Below are positions 53,839-55,860 of a stretch of 64,000 bases of DNA, in pieces. The stretch covers positions 2,967 through 66,966 of the forward strand of contig JAITWK010000025.1 of NCBI GenBank assembly GCA_031285295.1, read 5' to 3'. Made by a program: the position numbers and the translations under genes. The first letter of the stretch is position 1; each line of letters opens with the position of its first letter. The notes beneath the pieces are model-generated. The model did no database searches and was not told the origin of the DNA. It saw nothing but the letters and a program-made list of their open reading frames with translations. This stretch comes from Deltaproteobacteria bacterium (lineage in GTDB: Bacteria; Desulfobacterota; Desulfovibrionia; Desulfovibrionales; Desulfovibrionaceae).

Positions 53839-53854
53839 TGGCACGCTTCCTGCT
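53839..53854 (+). promoter_or_regulatory. sigma-54 (-24/-12) promoter in the sctS-chaperone spacer
   Basis: TGGCACGcttcCTGCT with exact spacing and a 7/7 match to the -24 box TGGCACG. It lies 65 nt upstream of ATG 53920. Confidence 0.8.
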
Positions 53855-53919
53855 CTTAGTGCATCAGTTCATCAGTTTTCGATTCACTAACCGCCCAAGC
53901 GTATTTCAAGGAGTATTTC

Positions 53920-54393
53920 ATGGCTGCGAACGATGGTGTTCTGTTTTCCTCATTAATCGGCGCTATTGCCAAAGATATAGGCATTCCAGAAGCGGCTGCT
54001 TCGCCCGACGGAATTTTTCGCCTGGAAGTGGAAGGGACGCCGCTCAGTATCATGCAGCGTGGAGAGTCTATCCTGCTGTATACCTCTCTCGGCAGCCTGC
54101 CGACGGACGAGGTGAGCGCGAATGCCATCCGTAATGTTCTGCTCGGTGCCAACGTCCTGTTCCAGGAAACGCGCGGCGCGACTTTTGGCATTGTCCCGGA
54201 AGACGGGGCCATAGTCTTATGCTGGCAGACCCCCATGCAGGGGCTTGGCGATGCCGATTTTATCAAAATGACGGAAGCATTTTTTATCCTCGTGGAAGAC
54301 TGGATGAAGCGCCTTGATGAAGTCATCAGCCAGCCAGAGCAGATGAAAACAGCCGTAGCCACCATGACAAATCCTTCCTGGACAAGCGTTTAG
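53920..54393 (+). CDS. T3SS class I (CesT/SycE-like) chaperone
   Basis: 157 aa. CAAGGAGTATTTC precedes the ATG. LIGAIAKDIGIPEAAASPDGIFRLEVEGTPLSIMQRGESILLYTSLGSLPTDEV...LLGANVLFQETRGATFGIVPEDGAIVLCWQ is a textbook class I chaperone layout. Confidence 0.75.
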   Translation: MAANDGVLFSSLIGAIAKDIGIPEAAASPDGIFRLEVEGTPLSIMQRGESILLYTSLGSLPTDEVSANAIRNVLLGANVLFQETRGATFGIVPEDGAIVLCWQTPMQGLGDADFIKMTEAFFILVEDWMKRLDEVISQPEQMKTAVATMTNPSWTSV

Positions 54394-54414
54394 GCATCAT
54401 AAAGGAGCAGAACA

Positions 54415-55821
54415 ATGACTCAAGTCAACACACAGAACAATCCCGTGCAGAGCAATTCCGTTTTCTCTCTTGCAGACAACAAAACTTACGGCGCAGGCGC
54501 AGGCAATTCCTTAGTCCGCACAGGCAGAGGTTTTGGCGGAAAAATCGTCAACTGGTTCAGGGAACATTTCAATTATTCCGGTATGCGGGCGCAGAACCAG
54601 AACGCCCTGGACAACCTGGCCCGCCAGTTGACAGAACAGTACAATGGCAAGGCTGGCTTTGAAACGCTGCGTATAAGCAGCCCCACGGCTGGCGGCGGAA
54701 GAAGCATTACCGGCGGGGAACTGAAGCGCCAAGCCCTTGATATACACGCCAGCATTATGCGCAATGAACTGCGTGCCCTGCCCAAAGATAGCTCTGGAAT
54801 GGACGTGCTAAGCTGCATTCTAAATACGCTGCCGTCTGACATTCCCAAAGATATGCTGGGCGCGTTTCTCAATAATCAGATTTTACCGATGCTCATCAAC
54901 TCCACAAACCTGATGCCGCGCCTGCAAACGCTTATGGGCAGCCAGGAAATGGCGGATATCTCCCAGATGCAGCATACTACGCAGAGTTTTATCGAGCAGC
55001 ATCTTGGGATCGATTCGAGGTTGATGGCGCAGGGTAAGGCGGAACTTGGAGTATGGGCGGATAAAATGAACGCGGTCGCGCTTGTTCGGGAAACAGCGAA
55101 CCGCTTCACGGATATGCCCATGCAGAACAGCAGCGTAAGCCTGCGCAATGTTCCTGAGAACACCAGCCAACTCATGGGGCAACTTGGTATTGCCGAATTC
55201 AAGACGCTTGGTCAGGCTTCGTGGGAAAATTCAGTTGCAACCGACCTCACCCAGGATTTCCTGCGCAGCAATCAGTTCGGCATCCTTGTCCGGCGGGCTC
55301 TAGCCTCAGAAATAGCGAAGCCGCACATAGAAGCCATGAAGGCAGCGCTCTCTCCCCTGTTTGAGAACATCAGCAATCTGGGTACGGAGACAGACCCGGC
55401 CACGGGAGAGACCAGAACTTTTGAAATGGCCTCTACAACGGCTCTCCGTACCCATCTGGAAAATAACAATATCAGCAAGGAAGCTCTGCAAAGCAATATG
55501 ACCCAGGCGCTTCAGAGTGTTCCGGGCTTCAAGGCCATGGTGGGTGAGTTGATGCACTTTGTCAGCTCCGAGCTGCGCCCTCTTTTGCAGGGAGACCCCG
55601 ATATGCAGCAGAAAATGATGTCAGGCTTTAACGGTGTTGCTTGGCTGGCAGTGTGCGGGGAAATGACCACAGAAGCCGTAAGGCAGGATAGCTGGCAGAT
55701 GAAGTTGATAGCCTCCGCCCTGCAATCATCGGTTTCTTCCAGCAGCATGGATGTGGGACAGCCCTGGAGAACATTCTTTGAAAGTGTTGATGGCTGGAAT
55801 GAGATGATAGCGACCGCGTAA
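54415..55821 (+). CDS. candidate T3SS effector (468 aa), function unknown
   Basis: AAGGAGCAGAACA precedes the ATG. The N-terminus is polar and Ser/Asn/Gln-rich (MTQVNTQNNPVQSNSVFSLADNK). No signal peptide or TM. A dedicated chaperone gene lies directly upstream. Confidence 0.6.
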   Translation: MTQVNTQNNPVQSNSVFSLADNKTYGAGAGNSLVRTGRGFGGKIVNWFREHFNYSGMRAQNQNALDNLARQLTEQYNGKAGFETLRISSPTAGGGRSITGGELKRQALDIHASIMRNELRALPKDSSGMDVLSCILNTLPSDIPKDMLGAFLNNQILPMLINSTNLMPRLQTLMGSQEMADISQMQHTTQSFIEQHLGIDSRLMAQGKAELGVWADKMNAVALVRETANRFTDMPMQNSSVSLRNVPENTSQLMGQLGIAEFKTLGQASWENSVATDLTQDFLRSNQFGILVRRALASEIAKPHIEAMKAALSPLFENISNLGTETDPATGETRTFEMASTTALRTHLENNNISKEALQSNMTQALQSVPGFKAMVGELMHFVSSELRPLLQGDPDMQQKMMSGFNGVAWLAVCGEMTTEAVRQDSWQMKLIASALQSSVSSSSMDVGQPWRTFFESVDGWNEMIATA

Positions 55822-55831
55822 AAAGATACCG

Positions 55832-55860
55832 GGCGACCGGGGAAAATACCCCCGGTCGCC
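55832..55860 (+). terminator. GC-rich stem-loop after the effector gene (terminator or attenuator, no U-tract)
   Basis: GGCGACCGGGG (55832-55842) pairs with CCCCGGTCGCC (55850-55860), an 11-bp stem with a 7-nt loop. It lies 15 nt before the sctT ATG. Confidence 0.5.

Follow-up and report, generated by a model that had tools for sequence, protein, structure and literature searches.

A chaperone and candidate substrate gene pair between sctS and sctT in a subfamily of Desulfovibrionaceae type III secretion operons

The window, by which we mean the whole 64,000-nucleotide stretch of DNA analyzed here, belongs to contig C31 of a 2.6-Mb metagenome-assembled genome of the Desulfovibrionaceae (G000), to which all genome-wide counts given below refer; other G and L numbers stand for the genomes and loci used in the comparisons. 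It carries a co-directional, Ysc-like type III secretion system (T3SS) operon, in which the open reading frame (ORF) listing and the profile searches gave the order sctL-N-O-P-Q, sctR, sctS, chaperone, X, sctT and sctU. The subject of this work is the 2-kb segment that lies between sctS and sctT. Reading from 5′ to 3′, sctS is followed by a sigma-54-type site, the gene of a CesT-family chaperone, a 468-aa ORF that we call X, a GC hairpin, and the sctT-sctU pair. The chaperone–X pair is shown below to hold a fixed place between sctS and sctT across several lineages, and sequence comparison makes it the best reading that the segment was inherited as part of the apparatus operon in one Desulfovibrionaceae subfamily of Ysc-like T3SSs. 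An earlier note on this DNA had described the segment as a self-contained cassette of promoter, chaperone and effector inserted among the export-apparatus genes; its elements and flanking genes were all confirmed, coordinates included, by the profile matches, the site and the hairpin.

Genes at the sctS–sctT junction

All four of the export proteins encoded around the segment, SctR, SctS, SctT and SctU, score above the NCBIfam equivalog cut-offs for the Ysc-like non-flagellar T3SS. On the + strand, the export-apparatus genes sctR and sctS occupy 52897–53547 (PF00813, E = 5e-65; TIGR01102, 259 bits against a cut-off of 208.6) and 53558–53827 (PF01313, E = 3.9e-23; TIGR01403, 100.9 bits against 76.5). 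Beyond the segment, on the same strand, come a third apparatus gene, sctT, at 55875–56657 (PF01311, E = 4e-53; TIGR01401, 191 bits against 163), and the export switch gene sctU at 56654–57694 (TIGR01404, 386 bits against 358), the start of which overlaps the sctT stop as ATGA. The gap from sctS to sctT is 2047 nt (53828–55874), and under a direct-succession test (<500 bp), which concerns gene order only, sctT does not directly succeed sctS. The spacers measure 92 nt after sctS and 53 nt before sctT, and sctT has a weak Shine-Dalgarno sequence (SD), GGGGA, at 55863–55867. The terminator scan called no terminator-like site after sctS, and no sigma-70-like promoter was called before sctT on the + strand; the read-through of transcription into sctT and sctU that the earlier note had envisaged is plausible for these two reasons.

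The first gene of the segment (53920–54393, + strand) encodes a protein of 157 aa with an isoelectric point of 4.2 and a match to the CesT family (PF05932, 46.8 bits against a cut-off of 22, E = 4e-12). Small, acidic and of this family, it has the sequence features of a class I (CesT/SycE-type) T3SS chaperone. Its orthologues, which are 41–56% identical, sit beside X-family genes in eight other contexts, and a CesT gene adjoins X in 9 of the 11 X-family contexts examined. The alternative identity of YscB, the SctW co-chaperone, was rejected, as TIGR02513 gave only 23.5 bits against a cut-off of 90, and the yscB position, before the secretin gene sctC, is taken by another CesT-like gene (41477–41926). 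The low YscB score and the filled yscB position together indicate a separate class I chaperone, which is presumed, on the basis of its gene neighborhood, to be dedicated to X as its client. In the adjacency of chaperone and client the locus is similar to Tir-CesT in the locus of enterocyte effacement, where a class I chaperone gene lies beside its client in a T3SS island and escR-S-T-U are contiguous. What sets the present pair apart is its unusual site between sctS and sctT.

The second gene, X (54415–55821, + strand), starts behind an AAGGAG SD, has no match in Pfam or NCBIfam, and is a candidate T3SS substrate or effector. A word-indexed homologue search returned X alone and was superseded by a full hidden Markov model (HMM) search, in which a profile made of X and its G174 orthologue was run against 1.84 billion cluster representatives. 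This search brought up 23 representatives related to X, 17 of them full length (466–528 aa). The family shares MTQI at the start, NQxxLDxLxRQLxxxYG, GKRxITG, LRGN, FNG, and a C-terminal PGWxEM, and its only invariant residues are M1, N61, Q62, G94, P235 and G258. The AlphaFold2 model of X, made with the family alignment as input, is confident and all-alpha (predicted local distance difference score 83, predicted TM-score 0.71), with residues 1–12 disordered and a beta-hairpin at residues 24–36; the first 30 residues include 14 Ser/Thr/Asn/Gln, one acidic and one basic residue. Foldseek comparison with the PDB found no significant match for either model (best E = 0.05, TM below 0.2), a profile search of the PDB sequences with the X family found no relative, and a Pfam scan of all 17 full-length members found no match. 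No host-directed domain or enzymatic motif is recognizable in X from Pfam, NCBIfam or the PDB. An arginine finger of the RhoGAP type at GGGRSITGGEL was considered and rejected; the R96 column varies among K, R, Q and E, and no GAP fold was matched. The X family is an undescribed and structurally novel family of chaperone-associated proteins from uncultured Desulfovibrionaceae.

The pace at which X has diverged is also informative. Across the cassette loci, X is only 22–34% identical to the X of the window and the chaperone 41–56%, against 76–87% for SctT and 73–89% for SctS. A rate contrast of this kind, fast for X and its chaperone and slow for the apparatus, is what one would expect of a secreted or host-facing protein, and the X-family proteins are probably secreted. 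With its recurrent CesT neighbor and the N-terminal features of sequence and model, X looks like a candidate chaperoned substrate. Whether such a substrate must be a translocated effector is a separate matter, as X might instead be an accessory that the machine secretes in this lineage only (a tip, adhesin-like or regulatory substrate, for instance), and such a role would account for the fixed position of its gene in the apparatus operon. X is indeed single-copy and keeps its operon position across the subfamily, its architecture and length (466–528 aa) are conserved family-wide, and the family has no invariant catalytic-type residue. Against an accessory role, X has no fold likeness to any tip or translocator in the PDB, where the best match stayed at E 0.05 with a TM-score <0.2, and CesT-type chaperones usually serve effectors. 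In addition, one locus (L130/L131, 3480–7027) has two tandem X paralogues of 490 and 492 aa, followed by a CesT gene, beside housekeeping rather than T3SS genes, and such paralogues with a chaperone of their own away from the T3SS behave like effectors. We consider the accessory role possible, with a rather low probability.

Recurrence and history of the arrangement

The order sctS-CesT-X-sctT was found in six lineages, namely those of the window, G174/L039, L125, L126/L127, L128 and L132. In a seventh lineage (L135), X stands directly before sctT, behind a different ORF of 330 aa. The apparatus proteins of the cassette-bearing systems are all close to those of the window, at the SctT and SctS identities given above. 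G174 belongs to a different genus (SctT 80% identical) and has the same order, with a chaperone 45% and an X 23–26% identical to those of the window. The pair is found in two further settings: on a short contig (L133) as chaperone then X, and after sctV (L129) as X then its chaperone. The spacers along the segment measure 24, 13 and 4 nt in L126 and 64, 11 and 38 nt in L039.

In a survey seeded with SctT, sctS lies within a few hundred bases upstream of sctT in 77 of 80 genome loci, the three exceptions being G174, G023 and G124; among the informative metagenome loci, sctS directly precedes sctT in 68 of 69. Kim et al. 2026 (bioRxiv 10.64898/2026.02.19.706803) counted sctRSTU in 83.8% and sctRS-TU in 0.6% of 848 injectisome clusters. 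The view of the earlier note that a split between sctRS and sctTU is unusual in general is well supported by these numbers. The novelty it saw in the insertion was to be lowered if the same insertion proved the rule in this T3SS subfamily, and this is so, because the synteny comparison shows the cassette to be a common arrangement there, with six lineages and L135 as a seventh; across T3SSs at large the arrangement is still rare.

Recurrence also bears on the origin of the segment. Had it been an artefact of assembly, or a mobile insertion acquired recently by this one genome, it would hardly appear with the same gene order in six independent assemblies from different samples, with orthologues as deeply diverged as X is (22–34% identical). 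The GC content and the GC content at third codon positions (GC3) of the cassette equal those of the neighboring genes, no flanking direct repeats or terminal inverted repeats were found around it, and the ORF listing gave no mobility genes. Repeats, GC and recurrence alike give no sign of a recent or mobile insertion. Nothing but the rarity of the arrangement speaks for this explanation, the probability of which is close to nil, and we regard it as refuted by the recurrence of the order and by the SctT tree.

In the SctT tree, the subfamily is one clade (support 85/90) with two branches. Clade A consists of L039, L126 and L136, and clade B of the window, L125, L128, L132, L135 and G023. One member found in the metagenome survey, L136 (SctT 76%, SctS 85% and SctR 84% identical), has its sctS and sctT contiguous, only 15 nt apart, and is nested as the sister of the cassette-bearing L126 with a support of 92/97. 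Because of this nesting, the cassette appears to be ancestral and to have been lost in L136; one ancestral gain followed by this loss is the simplest history for the sequences at hand. The tree also divides the loci for which the term self-contained is appropriate. It suits clade B, where the pair comes with a promoter-like site and a hairpin, but not the sister clade A, where the pair can be packed seamlessly into the operon (24, 13 and 4 nt).

A few relatives are arranged in other ways. G023 is rearranged, with sctR and sctS 4.5 kb apart and sctT-V on another contig behind liv genes. Its sctR-sctS interval (L119, 6330–10790) holds two ORFs (510 and 415 aa) with an assembly gap splitting them, plus a 227-aa ORF; the 510- and 415-aa ORFs have a GQHDRHDDNYFF motif reminiscent of the catalytic loops of lipid or protein kinases. 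There is a gap of ~760 nt between sctR and sctS in L043. In the more distant Desulfovibrionaceae systems G124 and L137, sctT is detached from sctRS, and in L137 (420–3650; SctT 62% identical) a partner-switching module of STAS, RsbW-like kinase and PP2C genes lies divergently just upstream of the sctT-first operon. G051, a more distant member of the Desulfovibrionaceae, has a 1223-aa ORF after sctS (L120, 8762–12433); its sctT is immediately preceded by an ORF of 1107 aa and separated from sctU by a CesT-like ORF (L035, 92–3415 and 4130–4741), so that the same junctions of the operon have taken in other cargo. The genome of the window itself has a second non-flagellar T3SS, on contig C16 (L122, 1–5400; L123, 3600–8900), which reads sctW-sycN-sctX-sctV-sctS-sctT, with an sctL-N-P-R block ~30 kb away on the opposite strand. 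A layout of sctR...sctV-sctS-sctT-sctU is common to the loci of Desulfobacterium, Halodesulfovibrio and Desulfocurvus (L049–L057).

In canonical Ysc operons, sctS abuts sctT. The window has all the genes of the canonical operon (sctN-O-P-Q-R-S-T-U and sctW-sycN-sctX-sctY-sctV) in the same order and on the same strand, but adds two genes, a sigma-54 site and a hairpin between sctS and sctT. The part downstream of sctU comprises a YopN/TyeA-type sctW, sycN, sctX, sctY and sctV, where the Ysc-type neighbors were identified as HrpJ plus TyeA (SctW), SycN, YscX and SctY, with sctV at 59987–62083. The sctU-sctW spacer (57695–57756) is 62 nt long in the window and 3–4 nt in L126 and L128. Another class in which sctS is not followed by sctT is that of the Hrp2-type clusters of Xanthomonas, Ralstonia and the Burkholderiaceae, with their sctRS-T-U organization, which makes up 7.2% of injectisomes (Kim et al. 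2026). In Xanthomonas, the gene of a secreted regulator, hpaA, comes after hrcS, and hrcT is in the hrpB operon (compare the module lists of PMC9366055). There, however, sctT is in another operon away from sctU, whereas the window keeps sctT and sctU together and co-directional, 2 kb past sctS; the intervening Hrp2 genes are unrelated to those of the cassette.

The sigma-54-type site and the hairpin

The promoter-like site of the segment, TGGCACGcttcCTGCT (53839–53854, + strand), is of the sigma-54 (-24/-12) type, with one mismatch to TGGCACG-N4-TTGCW. It is intergenic, 12 nt past the sctS stop with 65 nt left to the ATG of the chaperone gene, and fits the 10-nt spacing of GG and GC with TGGCAC and TTGC context; transcription from it would start near 53864. 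Genome-wide there are 25 sigma-54 sites with at most one mismatch, of which 13 are intergenic. One-mismatch sites at the matching offset are present in L125 (CGGCACGcggtTTGCT) and L128 (TGGCGCGactaTTGCT), so that in these two loci and the window the site is 12–16 nt past the sctS stop and 65–70 nt before the chaperone ATG, while the spacer around it has diverged. The sites of L132 and L039 are weaker (GG-N10-GC), and L126, with a spacer of only 24 nt, has none. We think it quite likely that the 53839 site is a real promoter, as its sequence and its kept position suggest.

The means to use such a promoter are encoded in the genome, where rpoN is present (466.6 bits, above the cut-off). The island has a sigma-54 enhancer-binding protein of its own (24962–26290, + strand; PF00158 with E = 7e-65, plus HTH_8), in which the GAFTGA loop reads GVASGV, and this protein is a candidate activator of the 53839 promoter. 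A precedent is found in the T3SS of plasmid pDV1 of Desulfovibrio vulgaris Hildenborough, in the same family, where sigma-54 promoters were predicted both for the T3SS operons and for an effector/chaperone pair, the effector candidate DVU4010 with the chaperone DVU2392 (Kazakov et al. 2015, PMC4641369). DVUA0100, predicted to activate both the pDV1 T3SS operons and an effector/chaperone pair, has a similarly degenerate GAFTGA loop, GVATGV (PMC4641369). The D. vulgaris pair is at a separate chromosomal locus, whereas the pair of the window is inside the export-apparatus operon.

It is worth separating this site from the others in its vicinity. The window holds four sigma-54-like sites with no more than one mismatch, where 1.4 would be expected. 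This enrichment was rejected as support for the promoter, since the sites in sctT and sctU follow from the coding of LARxLL and recur in orthologues for that reason. The sctT site, TGGCACGGCCGTTGCT in codons 5–10 (55888–55903), is a perfect consensus, of which the genome has only three; that of sctU, at its 3′ end (57585–57600), has one mismatch. Near-matches recur in the orthologues of L128, L126 and L040, and peptide coding appears to be the best explanation for these two intragenic sites.

The hairpin is a GC-rich stem-loop of 14 pairs (55829–55864, + strand). Its core has two perfect arms of 11 bp (55832–55842 and 55850–55860) and a 7-nt loop. The calculated stability is -30.5 to -31.6 kcal/mol (z = -5.0 to -5.3), and 0 of 200 shuffles were as stable. 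It starts 7 nt past the stop codon of X and ends 11 nt before the sctT ATG. The bases after the stem read GCGGGGATAGCTGC-ATG, with GCGGGGAUAGCUGC directly after it, and hence there is no U-tract; the structure has the GC-rich stem-loop of an intrinsic terminator but not the U-tract, and the terminator scan called nothing at this place on the + strand. Membership in a genomic repeat family was considered and rejected, as the arms are found paired only at this site in the genome. The genome does have two families of intergenic hairpin repeats in many copies, one like CCGGGGGGAATCATTCCCCCCGG and the other GCAAAAGCGGC...GCCGCTTTTGC with the flank AAAATGGGTA, which look like repetitive extragenic palindromic (REP-type) elements (for example, C2:11858–11880, C9:69247–69269 and C6:55285–55310 of G000).

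Perfect GC-rich stems of 10–18 bp are present in the X-sctT spacer of all four clade-B cassette loci (the window, L125, L128 and L132). The stem sequences and the spacer lengths are unrelated among the four, and the stems end 11–26 nt before the sctT ATG, or 11–15 nt in the window, L128 and L132. The whole spacer of L132 is also unusually stable when folded (z = -3.8). No hairpin was found in the X-sctT spacers of two clade-A loci, L126 and L039, and a good promoter is missing from these two as well.

A stem-loop ahead of sctT has a known counterpart. Kim et al. 2026 reported that over-expression of SctT is harmful in Salmonella, argued that the synteny of sctS and sctT keeps SctT low via translational coupling, and found that a foreign gene is tolerated between the two if a stem-loop controls sctT. 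Their engineered sctRS-mCherry-sctTU of Salmonella pathogenicity island 1 is like the window in having an extra cistron and a stem-loop ahead of sctT, and it kept its function when sctT was under stem-loop control. The arrangement of the window differs in being natural, in having two genes and an internal promoter, and in that its hairpin comes after the stop codon and does not enclose the SD; on account of these last two features its mechanism is probably not the same translational coupling.

The hairpin could nevertheless correspond in function to the stem-loop at the sctS 3′ end in Salmonella and Yersinia, limiting de novo ribosome loading on sctT; SctT would then be made only via coupling to the translation of X, or conditionally, as with an RNA thermometer. 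The mCherry insertion of Kim et al. shows that stem-loop control of sctT works whatever gene precedes. In the window, the stem base (55862–55864) reaches into the SD GGGGA, covering its first two bases, and no more than 7 nt separate the X stop from the stem; the 11–15 nt from stem to ATG in the window, L128 and L132 are within reach of the 30S subunit. The accessibility of the SD, however, is inconsistent across the loci. Its unpaired probability is 0.55 in the window, 0.64 in L128, 0.02 in L125 and 0.06 in L132, and in the latter two the SD is predicted to base-pair with coding sequence of sctT rather than with the large hairpin; masking of the SD by the hairpin was rejected on this ground. 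An sctS-type stem-loop would enclose the SD, but only two of the five SD bases touch the stem base in the window, and the stem occupies the spacer rather than the 3′ end of the X coding sequence. In L125, L128 and L132, ~24–78 nt separate the X stop from the start of the hairpin, a distance at which a terminating ribosome could not melt it. Control of this translational kind is in our view quite doubtful.

Substrate expression, SctT dosage and operon design

The gate subunit SctT is present as one copy per SctR5S4T1 complex, and intercistronic stem-loops are established in other operons as barriers to RNA decay or as partial barriers to read-through. With this in mind, we consider it somewhat more probable than not that the chaperone and X form a lineage-fixed chaperone/substrate pair in the operon, the expression of which is boosted by an internal sigma-54 promoter while the hairpin buffers the dosage of sctT and sctU. 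Transcripts from the upstream apparatus promoter would read through sctS into the chaperone–X pair and on into sctT-sctU. In clade B, the internal sigma-54 promoter after sctS, probably driven by the DVUA0100-like activator of the island, would add transcripts of the pair. Between X and sctT, the U-less hairpin would then serve as a dosage buffer at the RNA level, either as a partial barrier to read-through, or as a barrier to 3′-to-5′ decay that stabilizes the chaperone–X segment, or both. In this way an abundant substrate pair and the low-copy SctT could share an operon without over-production of SctT. Promoter, read-through and hairpin function are all pieced together here from sequence.

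Several observations weigh against this explanation. The hairpin, having no U-tract, is not a canonical terminator, and the whole-spacer folding of L125 and L128 is unexceptional in comparison with shuffles (z = -1.4 and +0.5). A k-mer comparison of the candidate sigma-54 promoters found no shared upstream activator site, only chance 9–10-mers, and the alignment of the X family has no invariant catalytic-type residue. The promoter and the hairpin co-occur in one clade only, and the pattern of four loci against two may reflect a single evolutionary event; being confined to one clade, the co-occurrence counts as about one event. Finally, ~32 of the 84 intergenic, perfect, GC-rich hairpins in the genome have no T-run (some of them in repeat families), and U-less hairpins are therefore common in this genome.

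A rival reading is that the site and the hairpin have no regulatory role, that the pair is simply two extra cistrons of a long read-through operon, and that the hairpin is neutral GC-rich structure of the spacer or a remnant of recombination. The frequency of U-less intergenic hairpins is in line with this, and clade A (L126 and L039) works without the hairpin and with a degenerate site at best; LARxLL coding accounts for two other sigma-54-like sites in the window. The near-consensus site, on the other hand, has kept its position in three loci despite the diverged spacer around it. A perfect stem of at least 10 bp is found in each of four short spacers, where we estimate the chance at ~1e-3 per spacer, and the stem sequences turn over while the structure persists. 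For these reasons the absence of any role is judged unlikely.

The regulated chaperone/substrate pair can be taken one step further, into a proposal that we put forward as a long shot. The translational coupling of sctS to sctT may have been replaced by a substrate gene leading into sctT, fed by the activator-dependent sigma-54 promoter, with the hairpin setting the flux to sctT and sctU. If this were true, the number of new export gates would scale with the synthesis of one secreted protein, and none would be built apart from it. The seamless junction of L126, the junction of L136 where the cassette was lost, and that of the window with promoter and hairpin would then be three natural solutions to one stoichiometry problem.

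Few gene orders in bacterial secretion are as conserved as sctR-S-T-U. The subfamily described here, from a small group of gut-type relatives of sulfate reducers, broke its sctS-sctT junction and kept it broken through deep divergence, and in doing so supplies examples from nature that run counter to a rule of T3SS operon design now under debate. X defines a new putative substrate family, and the close relatives, with three junction designs and one reversion among them, form a natural comparison set for what the start of sctT requires.

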